A stretch of DNA of 64,000 nt, taken from NCBI GenBank assembly GCA_947627205.1, contig CANQVE010000008.1, positions 6,944 through 70,943 on the forward strand, given 5' to 3'. Within the stretch, counting starts at the first letter, position 1, and each line of letters starts with the position of its first letter. The position numbers and the translations under genes are program-made. This document shows, piece after piece, positions 6,621 through 57,804 of this stretch. The notes under the pieces were generated by a model. It worked only from the letters and a program-made list of their open reading frames with translations. It made no database searches and had not been told where the DNA came from. This DNA comes from an uncultured Clostridia bacterium (GTDB lineage Bacteria > Bacillota > Clostridia > Oscillospirales > Ruminococcaceae).

Positions 6621-6843
6621 CAAGTATACAGTGTACAGTGGATAGTGTACAGCATTGGTGTCCTCTTCGCGGACAGTATTTAGATTGTTTTAAGTCGATA
6701 GGCACACGAACAACCTTTTATGGGTACATTTTAAAACGTTTCGGTTTGATAACAATCAAAAATGTCCGCATAGCGTTTTGCGCGAAGCGCATAATGCGTG
6801 GACAACCATAACTGACTACTTTACACTTTACACTGTATACTGT
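6621..6843. repeat. Heptamer-ended palindromic interspersed repeat, copy A
   Basis: Ends AGTATACAGTGTACAGTG / CACTTTACACTGTATACT; core TAGATTGTTTTAAGTCGATAGGCACAC...AAAACGTTT...GATAACAATC shared with 10904-11130 (inverted) and 27322-27522. Confidence 0.8.
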
Positions 6844-10906: not shown

Positions 10907-11130
10907 CAGGGTACAGTGTACGCATTGAACGCTTCGCGTGCAACGCTGTATGCAGTAAAATATATCCGCCTTGCGGCGGATAATATTAGATTGTTATCGG
11001 ACTGAAACGTTTTGGAAACAACTGTAAGTATAGGTTCGTGTGCCTATTGACTTAAAACAATCAAATAATGTCCGCGAAGTGGACAACTACTACTGTACAC
11101 TGTACACTGTAAACTTTACACTGTAAACTG
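10904..11130. repeat. Heptamer-ended palindromic interspersed repeat, copy B (inside dgt-dnaG operon)
   Basis: TGACAGGGTACAGTGTAC...TATCCGCCTTGCGGCGGATA...TGTCCGCGAAGTGGACA...CTGTACACTGTACACTGTAAACT; core is the reverse complement of copy A. Confidence 0.8.
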
Positions 11131-15718: not shown

Positions 15719-15748
15719 GCAAGTATGCAGTGTACACTGTATACTGCC
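15719..15748. repeat. Minimal (ends-only) copy of the TACAGTG-heptamer palindrome
   Basis: GCAAGTATGCAGTGTACACTGTATACTGC: the two terminal arrays joined with no core. Confidence 0.55.
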
Positions 15749-23553: not shown

Positions 23554-24096
23554 ATGTTGACGGATGTGGAACTGCTTGAACTTCTGAAAACAAAGCCCGA
23601 AAAGGGCATAAATGCGCTTTTAAAGCAATACGGCGGGCTTGTGTATGCGGTAGTCAGGCGAAAACTTTCGGGGCTGAATTTTGCCGAAGCGGATATTGAA
23701 GCCTGCGCCGCCGACACTTTCAGCGAATTTTATACCGACATTTGTAAATTTGATCCCGCAAAAGGAAGTATAAGAGCCTGGCTCTGCGTTATTGCTCGGC
23801 ATAATGCCGCAGACATTATAAGGCGGAACGCGCCTTTGCCTTTGGACGACGAGCTGAACGCCGCCGACTGCTCGCTTGAAAGCGACCTCGAAGAACAGGA
23901 AATGCGAAAAGCCGTTTTAGAAGCAGTAAAGGCATTAGCCGAACCCGACCGCGAAATACTTATGCGAAAGTTCTACCTCGGCGAAAGCTCAAAGGACATA
24001 GCAAAAAGGCTTAAAATGACGGTGTCAAATGTAGACACAAGAACGAGCCGCGCTGTTGAAAAACTTCGCAAAAGTCTTGAAGATTGGAGGAAATGA
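23554..24096 (+). CDS. ECF sigma-70 factor
   Basis: DIEACAADTF, KGSIRAWLCVIARHNA (region 2); DREILMRKFYLGESSKDIAKRLKMTVSNVDTRTSRA (region 4). Confidence 0.88.
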   Translation: MLTDVELLELLKTKPEKGINALLKQYGGLVYAVVRRKLSGLNFAEADIEACAADTFSEFYTDICKFDPAKGSIRAWLCVIARHNAADIIRRNAPLPLDDELNAADCSLESDLEEQEMRKAVLEAVKALAEPDREILMRKFYLGESSKDIAKRLKMTVSNVDTRTSRAVEKLRKSLEDWRK

Positions 24097-25616
24097 GAAT
24101 GAAATATTCTTTGGACAATTTATTAGACGAATTAACTCCCGGCGAGCTTGATGAAATAATGCCCGATAATATTGACGTCAATTTGTCGGGTAAGACGCTT
24201 CGCGGCGTCAGGAAAAGAGTTCTTAAAAATGCAAAGATAAAGCCCCGGCATTTAAGCGTAAAGATAGCCGTACCCGCCGCCTGCGTTGCTGTTGCTGCGG
24301 GAGTAGGAGGCTTTGCAATTGCAGAGGAGGCGAAGGAATACAACTCGGCGGTCGAGTTTTTCGAGGAGAACGGCTTGTCGTCCGAGGGGCTGAGCCGTGA
24401 TGATCTGAAGGCGGTATACCGCGACATAACCACAAACAGCTTTACAAACGGAAAAACCGCCGAGGTGTTCAGAAACTCTGTCGCAGGAACGGAGATACTT
24501 CAGAGCGAACCCTCTCCCGACGAGCTTGAATATTTCTGGAACAACAACGTAAATACAAGCACATACGCATACACCAAAGAAACGCCCGTGAAATATTCCA
24601 TTGATTATGTCGGCAGCAAAAGAGGCGACGATCATGAAAAAGTTACGGTAAAATGCGAAAAGAACGGCGCTGTTTTATGGACGGCCGATTTCCCGAATTT
24701 CGGAACAAGGTGGGAGGACGACGACCTTTATATTGAACAGGCGCAGTATATTTCGGACAAGACCGCTGTTATCGGTTCAACTTGCCATTACAGAGTAGTT
24801 ACCTCAGGCAGTAAGTCGGACGGCGTTACACACAGCTTTCTGACCTTGATTGACAACAGCGGAAACAAACTTTGGACGCACAGTTTTGACCATGGTTTTG
24901 ACTGGGATTATTTGTACAGAGTTGTTGAAAACGGGGATAATCTGATTTGTCTGGGAGTGTGCGACAATGATTGTCTGTTCTTCACCGAACTTGACAAAAA
25001 CGGAAACGAGATTAATTTCAACAAGGCGAAAATCGACGGCATTATTGACGTAAGAAACGCCGTAAAGCTCGGCAATGAGTATCTTGCGCAGATTTGGACC
25101 GATAGCGGCGAAAGGCTCGTAAAAATTGACGAGAACGGATACGTGACCGAAAACTATTTCTACGAAAGCGACGACTGCGACTACAGCATAGTTGATATGG
25201 CAGAATTTGAGGGGAAAGTTTATCTGTCGGCTTATTCATTCCCTAAGGGGGAAAGCGGCGCATATAGCGAACACGATTCGCTCTGGGATGCTATTGCAAG
25301 CAGAAACTCAGATGAACCGTTTGATATAACAGAGCATATCCGCGAATTTTACACGGCTGTCCTGCTTGTATGCGACCCGAACGGCGGAAAGCCCGAAACA
25401 TTCTGGTCGGCAAAAAATGCTCTCGGAGGCGACCTTGACGTTTCTGACGGAGAGCTTATCTGGGATGTCAAAAGCATAGTAAATGCGGGATTTATGCCGT
25501 ATGTAAGCAGTTATCCCTTCACAGGCAACTGCAAGGTTTACCGTTATACGTTCGATACTTCGGGGAAACTGACAAATTGCGAGGATACGGGGAAATATGT
25601 GCCTTTCGCCAGATGA
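24093..25616 (+). CDS. Probable membrane-anchored anti-sigma factor with extracellular beta-rich (propeller-like) domain
   Basis: ATGA overlap with the sigma stop; short cytoplasmic N-terminus, TM (IAVPAACVAVAAGVGGFAIA), repeated D..G...W motifs. Confidence 0.7.
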   Translation: MRMKYSLDNLLDELTPGELDEIMPDNIDVNLSGKTLRGVRKRVLKNAKIKPRHLSVKIAVPAACVAVAAGVGGFAIAEEAKEYNSAVEFFEENGLSSEGLSRDDLKAVYRDITTNSFTNGKTAEVFRNSVAGTEILQSEPSPDELEYFWNNNVNTSTYAYTKETPVKYSIDYVGSKRGDDHEKVTVKCEKNGAVLWTADFPNFGTRWEDDDLYIEQAQYISDKTAVIGSTCHYRVVTSGSKSDGVTHSFLTLIDNSGNKLWTHSFDHGFDWDYLYRVVENGDNLICLGVCDNDCLFFTELDKNGNEINFNKAKIDGIIDVRNAVKLGNEYLAQIWTDSGERLVKIDENGYVTENYFYESDDCDYSIVDMAEFEGKVYLSAYSFPKGESGAYSEHDSLWDAIASRNSDEPFDITEHIREFYTAVLLVCDPNGGKPETFWSAKNALGGDLDVSDGELIWDVKSIVNAGFMPYVSSYPFTGNCKVYRYTFDTSGKLTNCEDTGKYVPFAR

Positions 25617-26139: not shown

Positions 26140-27228
26140 TTATCTCTTGATGTCGTAGTTCATATTCATCAGGTTGCGAATACTCTGAACGTCGTCGGTG
26201 ATATTTCCGTCGCCGTGGATAGTATGCTTGATAACGCTTGATGCAACAGCGAAGTTTATCATATCTATCGGCTTGAAATTATTCATCATAGCATAGATAA
26301 GTCCGCTCGCGAATGCGTCGCCACCGCCGACTCTGTCAAGGATATTGAACGTAAACAAACGGCTCTCAAACGTATGTCCGTCATACCACATAAACGCTTT
26401 AAGGCTGTTCTCGCTTCCGCTGTGAGCATAGCGTACATGGCGCGCAATGCACTTTAAGTTCGGATATCTGTCGACAAAGTGGCAGAACACTTCTTCCTGT
26501 TCCTCATAAGATGGCTGGAGCGGAACACCGTCTTTCCAGTCGCCCTTTGAATGGTCGTCCTCGTCTTTCCAGAGATGATAAGGTTCAATTCCAAGAAGAA
26601 CGTCAACATAAGGCAGGCACTCCGTGCAATAGTCGCGCGCTTCTTCCCAGCTCCAGAGCTGACTTCTGAAGTTTCCGTCAAAGCTGACTATAAGTCCCTT
26701 TTCCTTTGCCTTTTTAATACAGTTCATGATAAGTTTACGGCAGTTCTCTCCGAGCGCGGGAGTAATTCCGCTCAAGTGAAGCCAATTAAATCCCTCAAGA
26801 AGCGAATCAATGTCGTAGTTGTCAAAGTTATACTCGGTTATAGCGCTGTGCATACGGTCGTATGTAACCTTGCTCGGGCGTATTCCGTAGCCTGTTTCAA
26901 GGTAATAAGTACCGAGCCTGTGGGTAGGCGTCTCCTCGGCTGTGGACAAAATAACGGGCGTGCAATGAACGTCGTTTGAACGAAGCATGCGCACTGCGCT
27001 CTTTCCGAGGCTGTTGTTGGGAACAACGCTGAAAAACGTACTGTCAACGCCAAGGTTTGCAAGCGCAAGAGCGATATTGGCTTCACTTCCTCCGTAGCTT
27101 GCTTCAAACGTAGAAGCCATACGGATCTTCTCATAGTTCGGGGGAGTAAGGCGAAGCATTATCTCGCCGATAGTTATAAATTTCTTTTGGTTTCCGTCTT
27201 TGGGGAGCAGAGGGTTATAATGTTCCAT
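26140..27228 (-). CDS. kdgK: PfkB-family sugar kinase, 2-keto-3-deoxygluconate kinase-like
   Basis: ITIGEIMLRLTPP, GGSEANIA, LHLSGITPAL, SFDGNFRSQLW, DRVGGGDAFASGLIY; AGGAG RBS before ATG 27228. Confidence 0.8.
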   Translation of the reverse strand: MEHYNPLLPKDGNQKKFITIGEIMLRLTPPNYEKIRMASTFEASYGGSEANIALALANLGVDSTFFSVVPNNSLGKSAVRMLRSNDVHCTPVILSTAEETPTHRLGTYYLETGYGIRPSKVTYDRMHSAITEYNFDNYDIDSLLEGFNWLHLSGITPALGENCRKLIMNCIKKAKEKGLIVSFDGNFRSQLWSWEEARDYCTECLPYVDVLLGIEPYHLWKDEDDHSKGDWKDGVPLQPSYEEQEEVFCHFVDRYPNLKCIARHVRYAHSGSENSLKAFMWYDGHTFESRLFTFNILDRVGGGDAFASGLIYAMMNNFKPIDMINFAVASSVIKHTIHGDGNITDDVQSIRNLMNMNYDIKR

Positions 27229-27321
27229 AGTTTTTCTCCTTAAAAGTGATATAAGAGAAAAATATTCTCTATCAATTATTATACACCATACACAGGAAAA
27301 TTTCAAGTGGGGAAATTGAAA

Positions 27322-27522
27322 AGTTTACAGTATACAGGGTACAGTATGCAGTAGTAGGTATCCGCCTTACGGCGGATAAGATTTAGATCGTTTTTGAACA
27401 ATAGGCACACTAGCAAACTTTTATTGTTACGTTCCAAAACGTTTAAGTTTGATAACAATCCAAAATTATCCGCGAAGCGGATACCATAACTGACTACTGT
27501 CCGCTGTACCCTGTATACTTGC
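27322..27522. repeat. Heptamer-ended palindromic interspersed repeat, copy C
   Basis: TACAGTATACAGGGTACAGTATGCAG..TATCCGCCTTACGGCGGATA..ATAGGCACAC..AAAACGTTT..GATAACAATC..TATCCGCGAAGCGGATA..CTGTACCCTGTATACTTGC. Confidence 0.8.
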
Positions 27523-27526
27523 ATAT

Positions 27527-27557
27527 AAAAACCGCTCCCGCCTGTTACAGCGGGAGC
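27527..27557 (-). terminator. Intrinsic terminator of the large ncRNA
   Basis: Minus strand GCTCCCGC-TGTAACAG-GCGGGAGC-GGTTTTT. Confidence 0.75.
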
Positions 27558-27559
27558 CT

Positions 27560-28155
27560 CAATTATTCAATTTTAAATTCATCCTGCTTGTAAGCTGAAG
27601 TATTACATCGGACCGTACCTCTCAATAAAATTCGTACTTCACACAAATTTTACCGCCCATGGGACTCAATCCTTTCGGTCAAATTTTCCTCTCCGTAATT
27701 TCAAAGCGCACATTCTAATCACCTAATTCTTTTTGGGGGTTATATGTAAACGCCTCTGAGCGACTTCGTCGCTGCAAGCGGTAGAAAAATGTCTGCGGAC
27801 TGCCTACTCGCAAAGGTTTTTATCAAACGGGTAATGCCCCTCACATCAGCGTATCGACGCACTCACTCGCGCGGATAAACACTCTCAAATTCGACCTAAG
27901 CGGTCGGCGGAACACGAATCCGCAGACTGTTCAAAAAATCCCTCGCTCATTTCCATTGGACTCGCTTCCTTTCTGCTTCAAGCTGAATTTTTTCGGCTTT
28001 CATTGCCGTAGGATAATTCCTCATCTCTCACCGATTACTTAGCTATATACCTATAGACCTTTCTTCGGGTTTAAATCAGATACCCATCGGACTGAACCGC
28101 CTTTCTTGGTTTTTACTTTAAGGAAGATCCGCCGTCGCGGTCTGTCTTTCCTTGT
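27560..28155 (-). ncRNA. Large structured ncRNA, ROOL-like (~600 nt)
   Basis: ORF-free; own promoter and terminator; long-range helix GTCTGCGGA/TCCGCAGAC and several hairpins; segments CTATAGGT..GCTAAGTAATC..GAGAG, AATGAAAGCCGAAAAAA..AGCTTGAAGCAGAA, GAGTGAGT..ATACGCT, GTTTGATAAAA match my recollection of ROOL conserved blocks (not computed). Confidence 0.7.
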
Positions 28156-28161
28156 GATTAT

Positions 28162-28190
28162 ATAATAACATATTTTTTGTTAAAAGTCAA
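28162..28190 (-). promoter_or_regulatory. Sigma-A promoter driving the large ncRNA
   Basis: Minus strand TTGACT-17-TATTAT with extended -10 TG. Confidence 0.7.
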
Positions 28191-28393
28191 TAGAAGTTTT
28201 TAATTTTTTTGTTGTGAATTTGTATATATTTTTAAAAATCAATTTGGGCAAACTAATGATAATTTCATGTAATGCACGTCAAAACGCTGTTTTTCATAAA
28301 TTTCCTATTGACACAAAACAAAAAATAGTGTAAAATAATAAAGTCGGCGTTATTCATATCTGAAAATACTGCGCCGAAAAAGGCGGCGGTAAA

Positions 28394-28711
28394 ATGGCTG
28401 AAAATAACGATGCATTTCTTGACGAAGAAGAGGGAATAATTGAACTTGAGGACGAAGACGGAAACGTCACGAGATTTGAGTTTGTAGATCGTGCCGAGTA
28501 TAACGGAACGGTTTATTATGCGCTTATTCCCGACGACGCCGAAGACGAGGGCACGGCTGAATTTGTCGTTCTGAAAGAACAGGAAGTCAACGGCGATATA
28601 ATGCTCGCAACTGTCGATGACGACGACGAATACAACGAGGTCGGAGAGATGTTTCTGAAAAGATTTTCTGAACTGCCAGATCTTGAAGAGCCCGAGGACG
28701 ACAATCTTTAA
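28394..28711 (+). CDS. DUF1292 family acidic protein
   Basis: IIELEDEDGNVTRFEFVD..EYNG..YYALIP...DDDEYNEVGEMF. Confidence 0.8.
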   Translation: MAENNDAFLDEEEGIIELEDEDGNVTRFEFVDRAEYNGTVYYALIPDDAEDEGTAEFVVLKEQEVNGDIMLATVDDDDEYNEVGEMFLKRFSELPDLEEPEDDNL

Positions 28712-28763
28712 TTTTGTTTACATACTGCCTTGCAGCGCGAATGTGTGCTGTTATAATCCCAAC

Positions 28764-28925
28764 ACATTGTAAAAGGGATCTCGACTCCGTCAGCGGATTG
28801 CAGACCTCCTGTTCCGAAAGGACAGTTGGCGGGAGCGTGAAACTGTCGGGCGACTTTACCCACCCTGCTATTTGCGGGTTTTATATTGCATCTTACGGCA
28901 AGGCGGTACTTTTAAAAATTACGCA
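28764..28925 (+). ncRNA. ssrS: Probable 6S RNA (ssrS)
   Basis: Downstream of TTGCAG..TGTTATAAT; contains GGGAG then ACCCACCCTGC..GCGGGTT..ACGGCA blocks typical of Firmicute 6S; 5'/3' arms partially complementary; ends approximate. Confidence 0.5.
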
Positions 28926-29108
28926 GAGGGGCATTTGCTCCGCTTTTTCGGGACAGCACTGTATAATAACCGTAAAAACGCTTGTTATACAAAACTGTTC
29001 GTAAAGTCACATCTGCGAAGCCGGCGGCAATGCAACACAGGCAAAGTTGCATTGCCGTTTTGGCGTTATGCGTTTTGAGCACAATAAACGGTCCGAAAGG
29101 AGGCCGCT

Positions 29109-31892: not shown

Positions 31893-34286
31893 ATGGCTGA
31901 CGAAAATTTTCAAAAGATTTATAATCATTATGAGGGCGAAGCAAATAATAAGATAAGTTTTTATGTGACTGTCATTAAAGATTGGAATAAGCGCAGGGCA
32001 CAAATTACGGAGCAAATGACATTGGACGACTACATAGAACTTGTTGACTTTTTGGGCAATAAGTCAGGGGCGTTTGTTGAACTTAGTTCCCGTAATCCCG
32101 AACACTATATGATTTATAAAGATAAAGATGATGATAAATATAAAGATGATGATAAATATAAAGATAAAGATAATGATATATATTCCGTATCTAAGACGTA
32201 TTATACACCCGAAGAGTTAGAGACAAAAAATGCAGAAAATAAAAAGAGCAAAACTGTTAAGGTTAATAATGCTGAAGCTGAAAAAATTTTTAATGAACAT
32301 ATTCGCCCTTTGCTGAAGCTGGTTATCGATGCGTTTAATGAAAACGGATTTAAAGAGAATAAGACATTAGAAGATAGTTTATTAGACAACATAAAAGCTA
32401 GTATAACTAATATTATAACTAAACTGCAAAAATCTATTAATAATAAAACGTCGGATGAAATCAAAAAGAAAAAGGAAGCTATTATAAAAGCGTTGGAAAC
32501 AGCTAAAAATGAAGCAACCAAAGGAAATATAAAAACTAAACTCGTTAAAATGTCTGATAATAAAGACTATAATACAATAAACAAAAATATAAAAGAGATA
32601 ATATCTGAAATAGAGGAGATTGAAAATTTACTTAAACCCCCCACAGGTCCCACAGGTTTGAATGCTCTCGATCTTGTTCAGCACACTAAGCTCTATAAGG
32701 ATTACAGCGGAAAACAGCTGATCATAAAAATAATGGTTCTGGAATCTGCAAGATATGAATTGGTTCCCGAAAATGATAAAGGTAAATTTCCCGAAGAACT
32801 CAGATTCGCACTGCCGATTATACTTGAAAACGGTACAATAACCAGCCTTTATAAAAAACACGTTTCTGAAAACGATAAAGGTTTGACAACAACAAGAAAA
32901 TCTGCCGAAATTTTTAAAACGTTTAAAGAAAAATTGAAAAAAAAGTCCGCAGACAACCTCGAAAATAAACCCGCAGAAGCCACTGCAGAAACCCCCGGAG
33001 AACCCTCCGCAGAATTTAAACAATATGTTGCAATAGGCTATGTGCTTTGGGATATGGAACGCGGAGATATACTTGACGTTACGGACGAAACGCCGAACGT
33101 TATATACTACGGAAGTCCGGGAACAGGAAAAACTTATACCGTGACGCAGGGCATTAAAATGAACTTGATTTCTGACGGTAAGGGTGATAAAGAGAAAGAT
33201 TATTCGGTAACAGTTCAGTGCCACCCGGGATTTGGCTATGAAGAATTTGTAGAGGGACTTAAACCCGTTGGTTTTACAAGCAACGGCACGCTGAAGCTCG
33301 AACCGGTAAACGGAACTTTTAAAAACCTCTGTATTAGGGCAAGAAAACACCTAAACGAAAAATATTATTTTGTTGCCGACGAAATAAACCGCGCTAATCT
33401 TTCGGCTATGTTCGGAGAAACTCTCTCACTTCTGGAAACTGATTACAGGGATTTCAGAGAGCCAAGTGATAATAAGGTTGAACGCCAGACTATACGCAAG
33501 ACTATAGAAACCCCCATGTCACAGCTTACTGCGGTGTATTTCAACGATAAAATCAAGACTGCAAACGGCGACCAGTCTGTACTTAAAGAGATACTTGATG
33601 ACATCAGGGAAAAAGTCTACGAATGCGATTTGATATTCGGCGAGGGCGATAATAACAAGTGCAAACTTTCGGATTTGGATTGCAATGACAACGAGAAAAA
33701 AGCAAAAGCCCAAAAATTGGCGGGAAATCCTGAAAAGCTGGAGAAAATTGAAAACGTAGAATTCGGAATACCGAAGAACATTTACTTTATCGGCATGATG
33801 AATGACGTTGATAAAAGCATTGACGCGTTTGACCTTGCTCTGCGCAGGCGTTTCAAGTGGATAAGAAAAGACTGCGACTATGGAGTTCTGGAGAGTATGC
33901 TGGCAGATTGCGAAGCTGATTCAAAGATAAGATTCCGCAATGCATGCGAAAATTTGAACAACAGTATATCGGGCGGTGAATTGCGATTCGGGAAACCGTA
34001 TGAATTCGGTCACGCCTACTTCATGAAAATCAAGAATTATGTTAAAACAGACGGCGAGATAACAAAGGACTGCGTTAAAAAATTCTTTGCCGAACATCTT
34101 GAACCCGTTTTAAGAGAATACATCAGGTCTTTCAAAGATGAAAGCGAGATAGATTTACAGGTTAAAAGAATAAAGACAGCTTTTCTGAATGATATTGAAG
34201 AAGAAACAGGATTTGCGCCAGCTGACAGCACAGACCAACAGCAGAGTGATGATAACGATAAAAATGACGAAAAACCCGAAGAATAA
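31893..34286 (+). CDS. mcrB: McrB-family AAA+ GTPase with ~400-aa unrecognised N-terminal region
   Basis: YYGSPGTGKT Walker A, CHPGFGYEEFVEG, VADEINRANLS..FGE, MMNDVDKSI (NxxD), LALRRRF, FGHAYF. Confidence 0.85.
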   Translation: MADENFQKIYNHYEGEANNKISFYVTVIKDWNKRRAQITEQMTLDDYIELVDFLGNKSGAFVELSSRNPEHYMIYKDKDDDKYKDDDKYKDKDNDIYSVSKTYYTPEELETKNAENKKSKTVKVNNAEAEKIFNEHIRPLLKLVIDAFNENGFKENKTLEDSLLDNIKASITNIITKLQKSINNKTSDEIKKKKEAIIKALETAKNEATKGNIKTKLVKMSDNKDYNTINKNIKEIISEIEEIENLLKPPTGPTGLNALDLVQHTKLYKDYSGKQLIIKIMVLESARYELVPENDKGKFPEELRFALPIILENGTITSLYKKHVSENDKGLTTTRKSAEIFKTFKEKLKKKSADNLENKPAEATAETPGEPSAEFKQYVAIGYVLWDMERGDILDVTDETPNVIYYGSPGTGKTYTVTQGIKMNLISDGKGDKEKDYSVTVQCHPGFGYEEFVEGLKPVGFTSNGTLKLEPVNGTFKNLCIRARKHLNEKYYFVADEINRANLSAMFGETLSLLETDYRDFREPSDNKVERQTIRKTIETPMSQLTAVYFNDKIKTANGDQSVLKEILDDIREKVYECDLIFGEGDNNKCKLSDLDCNDNEKKAKAQKLAGNPEKLEKIENVEFGIPKNIYFIGMMNDVDKSIDAFDLALRRRFKWIRKDCDYGVLESMLADCEADSKIRFRNACENLNNSISGGELRFGKPYEFGHAYFMKIKNYVKTDGEITKDCVKKFFAEHLEPVLREYIRSFKDESEIDLQVKRIKTAFLNDIEEETGFAPADSTDQQQSDDNDKNDEKPEE

Positions 34287-34298
34287 AAGGATCGTGAT

Positions 34299-35768
34299 AT
34301 GGCAAAAGATATAAAAACATTTAAGGAATCTGCAAACAGCAATTTCTATAAACCGCCGTCAGCTGACAAGCTGAAAAAATCCAACTCGGGTTTGACAGGG
34401 TTGCTTAATAAGATATACGGCAGTCCTAAAGCGCAGAAATTCTATGTTAAAGGTCAGGGAGATTTTGAAAAGCGCGGATATAAACTTTTTGAACTTCAGT
34501 CTTTTGAAAGCAACGGTTTTTCAAAGAATTACGATGAAAGCCGTCTTGTATATGAATTGGCAATAACTGCGGACGAAGACAACAATTCAAAAAATTATTA
34601 TTATTTCAAAACAGGTCTGTATACGGGTTTTTTATACATCACCGTGAAAGACGAACGTTTATGCCTTGAGATCGATACGGGATACAGTGATATTTTCTTT
34701 CGGAGAATGTTGAACGTTGCGAATAATGTCTTTCTGGACAACACTTCAAGCGGTGCAAAAAGCGCAAAAGCAAATTCTCTGACAGGTCTGGTTAGCTTTA
34801 TGTTCCTTTCGAGATTTAAATCCGCATTTGCTATGGGTATGCCGTCTGAGTATAAAACTATAAACGAACACGGTTTTAACGTAAAGGGAAAGATCGACGT
34901 TAAAAAGTACATTCAAAAGGATATGCTTCTGGGCGGGGCGCTGTCGTATTCTTACAAACAGAGGCAATACGTTCAGGACGTGATCGACGTGCTGTATCTT
35001 GCAATGAAAACACTAAAGGAATCGGGCGAGATAAACACGGCGGATTATGAGAAATATTACCGCGAATTAAGACAAATGCGCTCAGATAAAACGGTGACGC
35101 ACGCCACTATTCACAATATCAGAAAACACCGTTCTCTTAATAATCCTTTGTACAACAGGTATAAAACTGCGCTGTACTTTGCGGAAATGGTTCTTGAAAT
35201 GAAAGAGGTATTTCATAACGACGAAAGCAGTGAAATGGGCTTTTCGGGATTTTTGCTCGACATTTCCCAGCTTTGGGAAGTATACCTTGTAAATCTGCTT
35301 AGGAAGCGTTTTGATAATGAGTATAATATATTAGCGCAGGAAGAACTCGAACTGTATAACGACGCTTTCTACAAAAGAACCAACAGACCTGATATTGTAA
35401 TTGAAACAAAGGACGGAGTGCCTGTTGCGGTGCTTGACGCTAAGTTTAAGAAAATGAATTATGATAAAGATGATGTTGACAGGGGCGATATGTTTCAGAT
35501 CCATTCATATACGGGATATTACAACGAACATAGCAAACTTACAGGAAACCCGCCCCTGCGTTTCAGCGCGCTTGTCTATCCGTCAAAAAGCGCCCCCGGT
35601 GTTCAGACATATTCGCCTTTATACGGTCTGAACAATGCCATAACTCAATTTGCGGTCGAGTATATATGTGTCAAAGATAATGACAACTTTGAAGATATTA
35701 AAAATTCTGAAGATGCGTTTCTTGACAGGATAGAACAGCTTCTTGAAAATAAGACCTCCGCGCTGTAA
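34299..35768 (+). CDS. mcrC: McrC-family PD-(D/E)xK nuclease subunit
   Basis: LLDISQLWEVYL, RPDIVI...VLDAKFK, DRGDMFQIHSY motifs; directly after mcrB. Confidence 0.82.
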   Translation: MAKDIKTFKESANSNFYKPPSADKLKKSNSGLTGLLNKIYGSPKAQKFYVKGQGDFEKRGYKLFELQSFESNGFSKNYDESRLVYELAITADEDNNSKNYYYFKTGLYTGFLYITVKDERLCLEIDTGYSDIFFRRMLNVANNVFLDNTSSGAKSAKANSLTGLVSFMFLSRFKSAFAMGMPSEYKTINEHGFNVKGKIDVKKYIQKDMLLGGALSYSYKQRQYVQDVIDVLYLAMKTLKESGEINTADYEKYYRELRQMRSDKTVTHATIHNIRKHRSLNNPLYNRYKTALYFAEMVLEMKEVFHNDESSEMGFSGFLLDISQLWEVYLVNLLRKRFDNEYNILAQEELELYNDAFYKRTNRPDIVIETKDGVPVAVLDAKFKKMNYDKDDVDRGDMFQIHSYTGYYNEHSKLTGNPPLRFSALVYPSKSAPGVQTYSPLYGLNNAITQFAVEYICVKDNDNFEDIKNSEDAFLDRIEQLLENKTSAL

Positions 35769-56255: not shown

Positions 56256-57593
56256 ATGAAAAAAATACTTGTGGTATTCACTATATCTGCTTTGCTTTTG
56301 CTTTCGGGGTGCGGCAAGAGTGAAACAAGCTCCCTGCAGATAGAAATAAACAATACCGAGAGCGGCGGCTATGCCGAAGAAAACAGCGGCTATCCCTATG
56401 AAAACGTGCAAAGCAGCTCTGACTATTATCACGAAAACGAGCTTGAACAGCCCGAATATGCAGAGTTTTTTGAAGAAAAGAAAGTGCACAGGCTGGACAT
56501 AAGTATCACTTCGGAGGATTGGAGCGCGATATGCGCCGCGCCGCTGAACAAGGAATACAAAAGCGCGGATATAACGATAGACGGTGTGACAATAGAAACC
56601 TGCGGTCTTAAAACTCACGGAAATTCAACGCTCAATGAGGTGGTTAAAGCCGAAAAGACCTGTTTCCCGTTTAAAATTAAATTTGACAAGTACACCGAAA
56701 ACACATTTATGGGTTTGGACGAGCTTGTATTGTGCAACAATTATATAGACGTTTCATATACGAGACAGTATGCGGGGTATGAAGCATTCAGGGCGATAGG
56801 AAAAGACGCACCGTTATCCGCGTTTTTCAATGTCTATGTAAACGGTGAGCTTATGGGGCTTTATACGGGCGTAGAAGAAATAGACGACAGCTATCTCGAA
56901 CGCGTTTTCGGAAGTCACAAGCACAATCTCTACAAAGCGGACGAGATGGCGACGCTTGCGCCAAGTATGCCCTCATGGTCAATGAAGCAGAAAAATGGGA
57001 ACGACACAGCGGATCTTAAAAAGCTGGTAAAGGTCCTTGATGAAACGCCTCTCGGAGAAAAGGGAGAAATAGAAAGCGTGCTTGACGTGGATTCGGCGCT
57101 CGCGTATATTGCGGTAGGCGCGGTTATTCATCATTGCGACGGCTACGGCGGTTATTCGGCTCATAACTATTGTTTATATTTTAACGACGGAGTATTCTAC
57201 GTGTTGCCGTGGGATATGGACTTGTGTTTTTATCAGACGGGCTGGGGATTTTTGCCGAGCGAGGGAGCGCAGATGGATATTGCCGACGGGCTTACGGGAG
57301 CGGAGAATATAAAGGAGCGTCCGCTTATCCAAAAGCTCCTGGCGGTAGACGAGTATTATGAAACGTATCTTGAATATTGCAAAGAAGCTCTCGAATGGCT
57401 CAAAGAGTATGACTTAAACGGAGCAGACGAGCTTTATGAACTTATCGGCGAGAGCGTTAAAAACGATCCGCGCGGGAAATACAACCTCTTTAACAGCGAG
57501 TTTAACCACACCTATCACTACGGCTTCGCGGGATATATAAGAGAGCGCGTGGCTTACCTCGAGAATAGATTAAATGAACTTGCAGGCAGTTGA
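56256..57593 (+). CDS. CotH kinase-family lipoprotein 3
   Basis: LLLSG-C lipobox; GLKTHGNST, HNYCLY..VLPWDMD. Confidence 0.85.
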   Translation: MKKILVVFTISALLLLSGCGKSETSSLQIEINNTESGGYAEENSGYPYENVQSSSDYYHENELEQPEYAEFFEEKKVHRLDISITSEDWSAICAAPLNKEYKSADITIDGVTIETCGLKTHGNSTLNEVVKAEKTCFPFKIKFDKYTENTFMGLDELVLCNNYIDVSYTRQYAGYEAFRAIGKDAPLSAFFNVYVNGELMGLYTGVEEIDDSYLERVFGSHKHNLYKADEMATLAPSMPSWSMKQKNGNDTADLKKLVKVLDETPLGEKGEIESVLDVDSALAYIAVGAVIHHCDGYGGYSAHNYCLYFNDGVFYVLPWDMDLCFYQTGWGFLPSEGAQMDIADGLTGAENIKERPLIQKLLAVDEYYETYLEYCKEALEWLKEYDLNGADELYELIGESVKNDPRGKYNLFNSEFNHTYHYGFAGYIRERVAYLENRLNELAGS

Positions 57594-57804
57594 CAGGGTA
57601 CAGGGTACAGTATGCAGTAGTAAGTGTCCGCCTTTCGGCGGACATTTTTTAGATTGTTCAATAATTAAAAGAGCGTAAGCCTGTGAAAGGTTTACGCTCT
57701 TTCCTCTTAACACAATTTAAATATTATCCGCGAAGCGGATACCTAAACTGACTACTGTCCACTGTACACAGCGTTGCACGCGAAGCGTTCAATGCGTATA
57801 CTGA
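57591..57804. repeat. Heptamer-ended palindromic interspersed repeat, copy D (alternative core)
   Basis: TGACAGGGTACAGGGTACAGTATGCAG..TGTCCGCCTTTCGGCGGACA..AAAAGAGCGTAAGCCT..AGGTTTACGCTCTTT..TATCCGCGAAGCGGATA..CAGCGTTGCACGCGAAGCGTTCAATGCGTATACTG. Confidence 0.8.

Follow-up and report, generated by a model that had tools for sequence, protein, structure and literature searches.

The DNA analysed here, referred to as the window, is a stretch of 64,000 nucleotides (nt) from an uncultured Clostridia bacterium, and at positions 27527–28190 it contains what is almost certainly the gene of an abundant, independently transcribed and structured non-coding RNA (ncRNA) of ~590–630 nt, whose family is absent from Rfam 15 and the searchable literature and restricted to an uncultured clade of Oscillospiraceae from animal and human guts. 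We treat this large RNA as a new class, meaning a family, rather than placing it within a known class as a member or variant, since its likeness to the large RNAs OLE and ROOL lies in size and abundance only. An earlier sequence-only reading had described the locus as a ROOL-like RNA, possibly a domesticated copy; its core-chromosome position and the stand-alone, structured nature of a ~600-nt RNA with its own promoter and terminator are supported by the present data, and the family label is not. The best explanation as a whole, to which we assign a probability of about 0.4, combines the new ncRNA gene with mimicry of translation-initiation regions by five repeated modules (M1–M5), in each of which a motif resembling a Shine-Dalgarno (SD) sequence is followed by AUG.

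The minus-strand sigma-A-type promoter proposed in the sequence-only reading, TTGACT-17-TATTAT with an upstream TG, was recovered in a promoter scan (Table 1), and transcription is predicted to start at ~28155. The −35 and the TG-extended −10 elements are also kept in the homologue consensus. The terminator hairpin (27557–27534) is likewise present, with 9 bp, 7 of them GC, followed by GGTTTTTATA, and its stems vary among homologues yet remain complementary. The block in between was said to be free of open reading frames (ORFs), and with both strands considered the longest ORFs within 27560–28160 of this ~630-nt gene are indeed only 32 and 40 amino acids (aa). The minimum free energy of the large RNA is −185.6 kcal/mol, with z = −2.98 against dinucleotide shuffles. 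The locus thus displays the features of a generic stand-alone ncRNA gene, i.e., its own promoter and terminator, a transcript, and no conserved protein-coding signal, and its central domain carries the compensatory changes that mark a structured RNA.

A transcript, one of the checks proposed for the locus, is seen as RNA-seq contigs. Public runs with window sequence comprise rabbit-gut and other gut metagenomes as well as several RNA libraries, and 7 public RNA runs from at least three studies were mapped as contigs on the locus. The large RNA exceeds its flanking genes in contig depth, a rough measure of abundance, in all 7 metatranscriptomes. Depth in runs X17 and X18 is 940–1,080 over 27584/27667–28070/28144 compared with 0–40 for flanking genes, and across 2.2 kb only the large RNA and the neighboring 6S RNA (28722–28906) were assembled in X25, X26, X27 and X28. 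In most of these metatranscriptomes the large RNA surpasses 6S RNA in depth, by 5–25x in X26 and X28 and by ~23x in X17; the order is reversed in X20 (31.9 for the large RNA, 63.8 for the 6S side). One X18 contig runs into adaptor sequence at 28144, which is 11 nt downstream of the predicted start; another contig meets adaptor at 27584, and one X25 contig extends to 27559, the foot of the terminator. Assignment to the minus strand is based on the promoter and terminator, on their conservation in homologues, and on frequent G-U pairs in the covarying helices, which are compatible with this strand only, as they would be C-A on the other.

From 5′ to 3′, the RNA begins with a variable 5′ domain containing M1 and M2, and M3 comes next. 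A multi-helix central domain then leads to the 3′ domain, which is invariant in sequence and contains M4 and M5, and to the intrinsic terminator. The central domain is closed by the near-invariant helix GUCUGCGG/CCGCAGAC. The perfect 9-bp long-range helix noticed earlier, in which GUCUGCGGA pairs with UCCGCAGAC, is present and constitutes the most conserved helix of the family, where only the outer pair varies, and does so in a covarying manner. A MAFFT alignment of the whole RNA (A2, 42 non-redundant sequences) was ragged, and RNAalifold and a naive stacked-pair scan returned mostly noise from the whole-RNA alignment; per-sequence folding and per-domain alignments were used because of this raggedness. 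The elements that recur in the averaged per-sequence folds are the long-range helix, the inner long and small hairpins, the ACAU/AUGU-AGCG/CGCU helix, the A/U hairpin between M4 and M5, and the terminator.

Covariation among the collected homologues, also suggested in the sequence-only reading as a check, was found in the central domain. This domain alone was aligned with structure-naive MAFFT (A3), and 33 curated pairs were compared with slid-partner controls and 500 shuffles. Paired cells reach 88.0% (32–42% in slid controls), double-change cells number 102 (23–40), and the covariation score is 0.254 (0.05–0.08); none of the 500 shuffles attains the observed values. When 52 copies were realigned with the covariance model (CM) R1 (A4), 89.8% of cells were paired (24–46% in slid controls), double-change cells rose to 148 (11–41), and compensatory changes were present in 20 of the 33 pairs; a CM alignment is biased to its model, yet the naive A3 alignment agrees. 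Compensatory changes affect 11 of 12 pairs of the main hairpin in the CM alignment and 9 of 12 in the structure-naive one, and the stems of the small hairpin read GGGG/CCC, AGGC/GCCU, CGGU/ACCG, GAGC/GCUC, GAGU/ACUC and CAGU/ACUG across the family. Two local hairpins listed in the sequence-only reading also covary, namely GCGAC-GAA-GUCGC (27772–27760; GCGGC/GCCGC and GGCGA/UCGCC in relatives) and CUAUA-GGUA-UAUAG (CUGUA/UACAG and CCGUA/UACGG in close relatives). A third, CGACC..GGUCG, is present in the window, but its conservation is not clear, and the repeated UCAGCUU..AAGCAG block occurs in two copies, the first of which is family-wide and the second confined to the closest relatives of the window.

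Covariation is uninformative for the near-invariant block at 27703–27754, where UGCG/CGCA alternates with AGCG/CGCU. In some homologues the 5′ domain carries insertions of 150–330 nt, in which short GAGGGUGCG-type repeats and GC hairpins abound (L007:3480–3762, L044:997–1300), and insertions of up to ~330 nt imply that this domain tolerates large expansions. A helix between an A-run and a U-run around M3 is plausible; it carries no covariation information and is not claimed here.

The first homologue search followed the protein of the DUF1292 family encoded next to the large RNA, using the contigs of 8 orthologues with 72–93% identity. A gene-free gap of 880–1,360 bp precedes DUF1292 in all contigs fetched except that of L002, which ends 203 bp upstream of the gene, and nhmmer located the large RNA in every such gap, divergent to DUF1292. 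A protein-independent search for GCGAGTCCNATGGAA-N15-35-TCTGCGG over 185,579 species, each represented by one genome, returned 59 loci, 8 of which are chance matches in unrelated phyla without further homology. The 51 true loci all belong to uncultured metagenome-assembled genomes (MAGs), assigned to Oscillospiraceae (26), Clostridia (16), Ruminococcus/Ruminococcaceae (7), ‘[Eubacterium] saphenum’ (1) and Lachnospiraceae (1), and the carrier MAGs were obtained from the guts of rabbit, deer, mouse and human, among others. An independent pattern for the 3′ end gave 68 matches over a metagenome collection, 4 of them true according to CM R1 and 64 due to chance, which suggests that the family is rare outside animal guts. 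Altogether, homologues are conserved in ~55 further loci, with one copy per locus as counted within loci. At locus L069 the 5′ part of the RNA is unmatched by the profile and DUF1292 lies 2.5 kb away on the same strand, so that this copy may be rearranged or decaying. That no cultured representative of its clade was found is probably the reason why the family has been overlooked so far.

With respect to known families, the CM scan covered the 4,227 families of Rfam 15. At gathering thresholds the window yields two tRNAs only, and no ROOL, GOLLD or OLE; the region 27300–28400 scanned at E ≤ 10 with lax filters has no match to ROOL, GOLLD, OLE, RNase P RNA, signal recognition particle (SRP) RNA, tmRNA or introns; and 8 divergent homologue loci scanned at E ≤ 1 lack ROOL, GOLLD, OLE and other large-RNA matches. 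The weak matches obtained at E ≤ 10 (MIR4208, rteR, MALAT1 and RAGATH-13) were rejected as due to chance, to the terminator or to the neighboring inverted repeat, MIR4208 being spurious because of a MITE-like element (after miniature inverted-repeat transposable element) next to the gene. The operational criterion for membership in ROOL is a cmsearch match to the Rfam profile at 1e-5, and ROOL and GOLLD genes reside in phages or prophages, in many cases beside tRNA islands (PMC12286853). The ROOL label had rested on sequence blocks, and it fails because a CM match as well as a phage or prophage and tRNA-island context are lacking. The only tRNAs in the window lie at distances of 4.3 and 10.7 kb, in agreement with the earlier statement that no tRNA is adjacent, and a scan of IMG/VR with the most conserved pattern of the family gave a single chance match, rejected by CM R1, and no true viral copy. 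An assignment of the large RNA to ROOL itself, or to ROOL, GOLLD or OLE as a diverged or domesticated form, is therefore highly improbable and, as far as models of sequence plus structure can tell, refuted, although its length and abundance are comparable and its hosts are rumen- and gut-type Clostridia, in which ROOL was first seen (PMC12286853). A size of 580–660 nt and very high abundance, which it shares with ROOL, are not ROOL-specific; the constant chromosomal DUF1292 and 6S neighbors argue against this assignment, as does the outcome that a ROOL match is missing while covariation is kept, which the sequence-only reading had foreseen as the mark of a new class. Neither a match to the GOLLD model (RF01998) with phage or tRNA context nor a match to the OLE model (RF01071) was found, and there is no oapA-like membrane-protein gene among the Pfam-scanned neighbors. 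Neither the characteristic 13-mers of the family nor a description of such an RNA turned up in any paper of the searchable literature; unpublished or non-open-access descriptions are possible.

It is similarly improbable that the large RNA is a highly diverged housekeeping RNA or ribozyme, i.e., RNase P RNA, SRP RNA, tmRNA or an intron remnant. Very high abundance and a single copy per locus would fit such a role, and its GAAAG..GUCC strings are faintly reminiscent of the CR-I sequence of RNase P, GGAAAGUCC. No such Rfam match appears even at E ≤ 10, however, the narrow clade distribution is unlike that of universal RNAs, and the RNA contains five repeated modules instead of a single catalytic core.

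The genomic setting is highly constrained on one side. The large RNA on one strand, followed by DUF1292 and 6S RNA on the other, form a conserved unit. DUF1292 is divergent and 185–385 bp (mostly 192–208) from the promoter end of the RNA in all RNA-found loci with room except L069. The window 6S RNA scores 43.6 bits against RF00013 (gathering threshold 46.4) in a full-length alignment with a local E-value of 1.4e-7, 6S matches of 24.7–46.2 bits, the highest at L007, lie directly downstream of DUF1292 in 5 of 8 homologue loci scanned, and all 61 loci with room have a homologue detected by a 6S profile, less than 400 nt away and on the same strand as DUF1292. The 6S gene is ~560 bp from the large RNA; a mechanical ORF overlapping it (28714–29004) is spurious. 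While the DUF1292–6S side is unchanging, the far-side gene differs per lineage and may encode a PfkB-family protein, an IS200-type transposase, a Zn-ribbon protein, L28, IspF, a hypothetical protein beside lepA, or an integrase. This 3′ side appears prone to rearrangement, with IS200/IS605 Y1 transposases or phage-type integrases in some lineages (L003:2320–2667, L004:1624–1971, L014:1497–2402) and unrelated housekeeping genes elsewhere.

In the window, the neighbors are as previously claimed, a PfkB-family sugar kinase and the DUF1292 protein, and this arrangement raises the alternative of a cis-acting element, which would either be a long leader or riboswitch for the kinase gene that follows, or control the DUF1292–6S operon by antisense action or promoter interference. 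The kinase gene lies on the same strand as the RNA, and the RNA promoter stands back-to-back with the DUF1292 promoter region, ~150 bp apart, at very constant DUF1292 spacing. Yet a strong intrinsic terminator and a 190-bp MITE-like element intervene before the kinase gene, the downstream gene is different in every lineage, and there is no overlap with DUF1292 or 6S. Promoter interference would moreover require neither an abundance far above that of the neighbors nor a conserved structure of 600 nt, and we regard a cis-acting role as very unlikely.

The clue to function lies in the repeated modules. Of the five occurrences of GTCCNATG in the 64-kb window, four fall within the large RNA and on its strand, against an expectation of ~0.02, which corresponds to a ~200-fold enrichment. 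Across the family the module reads GAAAGG-(5–8 nt)-UCC-N-AUG-(G/U) and is found at five fixed alignment positions, with AUG in 32–42 of the 42 sequences. The stem of M2 alternates among homologues between GGAG/CUCC, GGGC/GUCC and GGA/UCC. The internal GG(AG)/(CU)CC stems of the modules comprise 2–4 bp, with a mean of 3.05 compared with 2.62 ± 0.09 for shuffled loops, and since they are only marginally better than shuffled, the modules are chiefly sequence motifs. Well-supported genes of the window carry aAAGGAGa and, after 6–10 nt (mode 8), ATG, and the ribosome-binding site (RBS) of DUF1292 reads GAAAGG(C/A)GG-N7-9-AUG across genomes; in the modules, AUG follows the SD-like core after 8–10 nt. 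Judged by sequence, the modules reproduce the SD-spacer-AUG geometry of the host. The large RNA has 5–7 conserved A(A/G)GGA sites, the GG being within a weak stem.

These AUGs could suggest a translated or dual-function RNA with mini-ORFs of ~19 codons at M3, ~12 at M4 and a start-stop at M5, in which a micropeptide or translation itself is functional, for example when a ribosome traverses the strand that forms the 5′ side of the long-range helix. Each module has a native SD motif and spacing, M5 places UAA directly behind its AUG in most homologues (Table 1), and the M3 frame (27954–27886, minus strand) is open for 16–23 codons in 42 of 42 sequences, the other two frames closing after a median of 3. 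The ORFs behind the module AUGs span 1–23 codons overall, however, with only 3 codons for M1 in 34 of 42 sequences, 2–3 for M2 in 26 of 42, and 11–12 for M4 in 31 of 41, the remaining ten M4 frames being cut to 2–7. Codon-position entropy at M3 is 0.83, 1.16 and 1.21 for positions 1, 2 and 3, i.e., without third-position bias, and the frame passes through helices with covariation at the RNA level. The distance from the M3 AUG to UCUGCGG is 30 nt in 32 sequences. Ten sequences have 27, 28, 29, 31 or 33 nt instead, and six of the ten are out of frame; in these six lineages the downstream ‘peptide’ is unrelated while the nucleotides are still conserved. A second indel restores the M3 frame at the homologous UGA in L007 and L036, which would speak for translation, but stop-free stretches of at least 16 codons start from 26% of all positions along the RNA, and stop codons are scarce in every frame of the GC-rich stretch. 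A conserved micropeptide at M3 or M4 is ruled out by the frame shifts and the missing codon bias, and we consider a translated RNA unlikely in general; the open M3 frame could be due to chance in a GC-rich, stop-poor stretch, or ribosome transit rather than the peptide could matter.

We propose instead a trans-acting role, in which the large RNA would serve as a multivalent mimic, or a scaffold, of translation-initiation regions. Its modules would copy the SD motif, spacing and start codon of the real initiation regions of the genome, with the SD-like GG(AG) weakly paired to an anti-SD-like (CU)CC, and the RNA would bind and either titrate or organize the 30S subunit, a platform protein, an initiation factor or an RBS-binding repressor, as a translational counterpart of the neighboring 6S RNA. 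Initiation-region mimicry is the most economical reading because five native-looking SD-spacer-AUG modules are kept as sequence in a very abundant RNA that is encoded beside 6S. Taken by itself, the trans-acting role is a tentative proposal, possible rather than probable. OLE RNA, for which sequestration of the ribosomal protein bS21 has been proposed, offers a precedent of a large ncRNA that acts on this part of the ribosome (PMC12286853).

Several observations weigh against initiation-region mimicry and, in part, against the picture of the gene as a whole. Since the modules repeat a single motif, their resemblance to SD plus AUG amounts to one coincidence copied five times, and the module might just as well be a structural or tertiary-contact element or bind an unrelated protein. 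A weak hairpin includes the SD-like GG, and GGA triplets are not enriched in the large RNA by a rough count against base composition. Covariation is uninformative for the 3′ domain because its sequence is too conserved, and the 5′ domain is too ragged to align and has little or no covariation support. Contig depth, besides being rough, is strandless. DUF1292 was rejected as an obvious RNA-binding partner, as it has no known RNA-binding fold and the literature is uninformative, and it may be linked to 6S rather than to the large RNA.

A different view of the same elements is that of an architectural, ‘ornate’ RNA in the manner of OLE, ROOL and GOLLD, whose conserved single-stranded blocks and repeated modules would either make tertiary or quaternary RNA-RNA contacts, with self-assembly to a dimer or cage, or build a dedicated ribonucleoprotein (RNP), the RBS likeness being incidental. 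The similar size, the very high abundance, the many invariant nucleotides outside helices and the multi-helix central junction all fit this view, and its GAAA-rich elements and CC-NAUG/GAAA-GG internal-loop-like modules presumably could form receptor- or loop-E-like contacts. Furthermore, OLE, ROOL and GOLLD are all homo-oligomers (PMC12286853). On the other hand, homology to these three families is absent, the module stems barely exceed shuffled ones, and a purely architectural role predicts neither the match to the native RBS motif and spacing nor the strict conservation of AUG. An architectural RNA is conceivable, if on balance rather unlikely. A bolder version of initiation-region mimicry would be a ‘6S RNA for the ribosome’, in which the five SD-AUG modules, including the M5 start-stop, dock 30S subunits or initiation factors, a ribosome on the M3 frame unzips the long-range helix and thereby switches the fold, and the large RNA, 6S RNA and DUF1292 together make up a global shut-down module in gut anaerobes; this we regard as doubtful.

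Table 1 Features of the large RNA gene and its neighbors in the window
Feature	Positions	Strand	Remarks
Promoter	28162–28190	minus	−35 TTGACT 28190–28185, 17-nt spacer, extended −10 TGtTATTAT 28170–28162; 10/12 matches in promoter scan
Large non-coding RNA	27527–28155	minus	Predicted primary transcript ~629 nt; RNA-seq contigs over 27559–28144
M1 GAAAGGCGGUUCAGUCCGAUG	28085–28105	minus	SD-like GAAAGG, weak GG/CC hairpin, UCC-N-AUG; AUG in 38/42 homologues
M2	28007–28022	minus	Degenerate in window (GAGGAAUUAUCCUACG); family consensus GAAAGGAGUUACUCCGAUGG
M3 GAAAGGAAGCGAGUCCAAUG	27954–27973	minus	Most conserved block of the RNA; AUG 27956–27954
Long-range helix, 5′ strand GUCUGCGGA	27919–27927	minus	Closes central domain
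Main hairpin, central domain	27848–27883	minus	AGUG..UAUCCGCGC / GUGCG..GAUA..CGCU
Small hairpin GGGG-CAUUA-CCC	27828–27840	minus	Pair types GC/AU and CG/UA/GC
Hairpin CCU-UUGCGAGU-AGG	27803–27816	minus	Last stem of central domain; 3/3 pairs double-changed, 75% of cells paired (ragged alignment)
Long-range helix, 3′ strand UCCGCAGAC	27791–27799	minus	Outermost pair GC 23 / AU 14 / GU 10
Near-invariant block GGCGUUUACAUA ... AUGUGCGCUUU	27703–27754	minus	Predicted helix ACAU/AUGU + AGCG/CGCU, recurs in independent folds of 42 sequences
M4 GAAAGGAUUGAGUCCCAUG	27658–27676	minus	Module with ORF behind AUG
A/U-rich hairpin UAAAAUUUGU / ACGAAUUUUA	27626–27652	minus	Between M4 and M5; 8 stacked pairs, mostly conserved
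M5 GAGAGGUACGGUCCGAUGUAA	27603–27623	minus	AUG then UAA directly in 37/42 homologues
Invariant single-stranded block AAAAUUGAAUA	27564–27574	minus	Directly before terminator; within RNA contig extending to 27559
Intrinsic terminator	27527–27557	minus	GCUCCCGC-UGUAAC-AGGCGGGAGC, then U-run
DUF1292 gene	28394–28711	plus	105 aa, very acidic; Pfam PF06949, E 1.5e-14; divergent from large RNA
6S RNA gene	28719–28913	plus	Begins 8 nt past DUF1292 stop; RNA contigs 28722–28906
PfkB-family sugar kinase gene	26140–27228	minus	Downstream neighbor in window
MITE-like element, ~190 bp	27329–27519		Between RNA terminator and kinase gene; 27-nt inverted termini (AGTATACAGGGTACAG...), inner inverted repeat

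DUF1292 has no relative by sequence in the PDB, and its matches in NCBIfam are to ‘hypothetical protein’ families only and below cut-off. An AlphaFold (AF2) model derived from 37 orthologues, with a mean pLDDT (predicted local distance difference test score) of 72.3, consists of six β-strands and a C-terminal helix, and has no significant structural neighbor (best E-value 0.07, template-modeling score below 0.5). We speculate that this acidic protein might mimic nucleic acid or bind a basic partner. The 5′ untranslated region of its gene contains a hairpin, CGCCG-AAAAAGG-CGGCG (28372–28388, plus strand), with the SD sequence in the loop and 3′ arm, and comparable contexts of a GC hairpin plus GAAAGG are present at several orthologous DUF1292 loci.

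The Pfam-scanned flanking genes encode the PfkB kinase, DUF1292, a DUF4303 protein and a ComEA-like helix-hairpin-helix protein. MITE-type termini occur 9 times in the window as compared with 0.03 expected, related termini being located at 6624–6638/6826–6840, 11093–11114, 15730–15744 and 57589–57610. Farther away on the plus strand, 31893–35768 encode an McrBC-type restriction pair, in which a 797-aa AAA_5 (McrB-like) protein, whose long N-terminal region is of low complexity and rich in K, D and E, is followed by an McrC-family protein, and 23554–25616 encode an extracytoplasmic function (ECF)-type sigma factor with regions 2 and 4, followed with stop/start overlap by a 510-aa protein without Pfam match that may be an anti-sigma factor or other partner of it.

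A new class of large and highly structured RNA is a rare find in bacteria. The main examples are OLE, GOLLD, ROOL, HEARO and raiA, each of which has opened up unexpected biology such as RNA-only cages, guide RNAs of transposon nucleases and membrane RNPs. Here, five native-looking ribosome-binding sites provide an unusually explicit functional clue. If initiation-region mimicry is true, the large RNA would become the first known case in which the translation machinery is regulated or organized through mRNA mimicry at such scale, and would offer the first functional context for DUF1292 (DUF1292/UPF0473); even if it is wrong, a well-defined target of ~600 nt with covariation support is at hand for cryo-EM and partner discovery.

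Compared with known systems, OLE (RF01071), which forms an RNP with OapA, OapB and OapC and bS21, is similar in being a chromosomal, single-gene RNA of ~600 nt that is among the most abundant transcripts, occurs in anaerobic Firmicutes, has many invariant nucleotides and is linked to a few neighboring genes in a conserved manner. There is, however, no match in sequence or structure; the neighbors of the large RNA are DUF1292 and 6S, it has five RBS-like modules, and it is confined to one gut Oscillospiraceae clade, whereas OLE has thousands of genes. The link of OLE to translation initiation is the proposed sequestration of bS21 (PMC12286853), and that of the large RNA is likewise only proposed. 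ROOL (RF03087) shares the length class of 580–660 nt, very high expression and hosts among rumen and gut Clostridia; it differs in that phages or prophages carry it, frequently close to tRNA islands (PMC12286853), in contrast to the fixed chromosomal neighbors and the lack of a true viral copy in the present family.

CsrB and RsmZ sponges similarly display many short, purine-rich SD-like motifs (A/GGGA) on one abundant RNA, and the concept of titrating an RBS-binding protein is the same. Their motifs are presented in hairpin loops with little other conserved structure, whereas the large RNA has GG in a weak stem, UCC-N-AUG and a large covarying core; Csr-type sponges are not known from Firmicutes. 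ROOL forms a homo-octameric RNA nanocage, and 6S RNA is the classic mimic that sequesters RNA polymerase. 6S RNA (RF00013) is also an abundant stand-alone RNA, is physically linked to the large RNA, and itself mimics a nucleic-acid substrate. It is ~190 nt long and folds into a single irregular hairpin with a central bubble that resembles an open promoter, whereas the large RNA is three times longer and multi-domain and, if a mimic at all, would imitate mRNA initiation regions where 6S imitates open promoter DNA.

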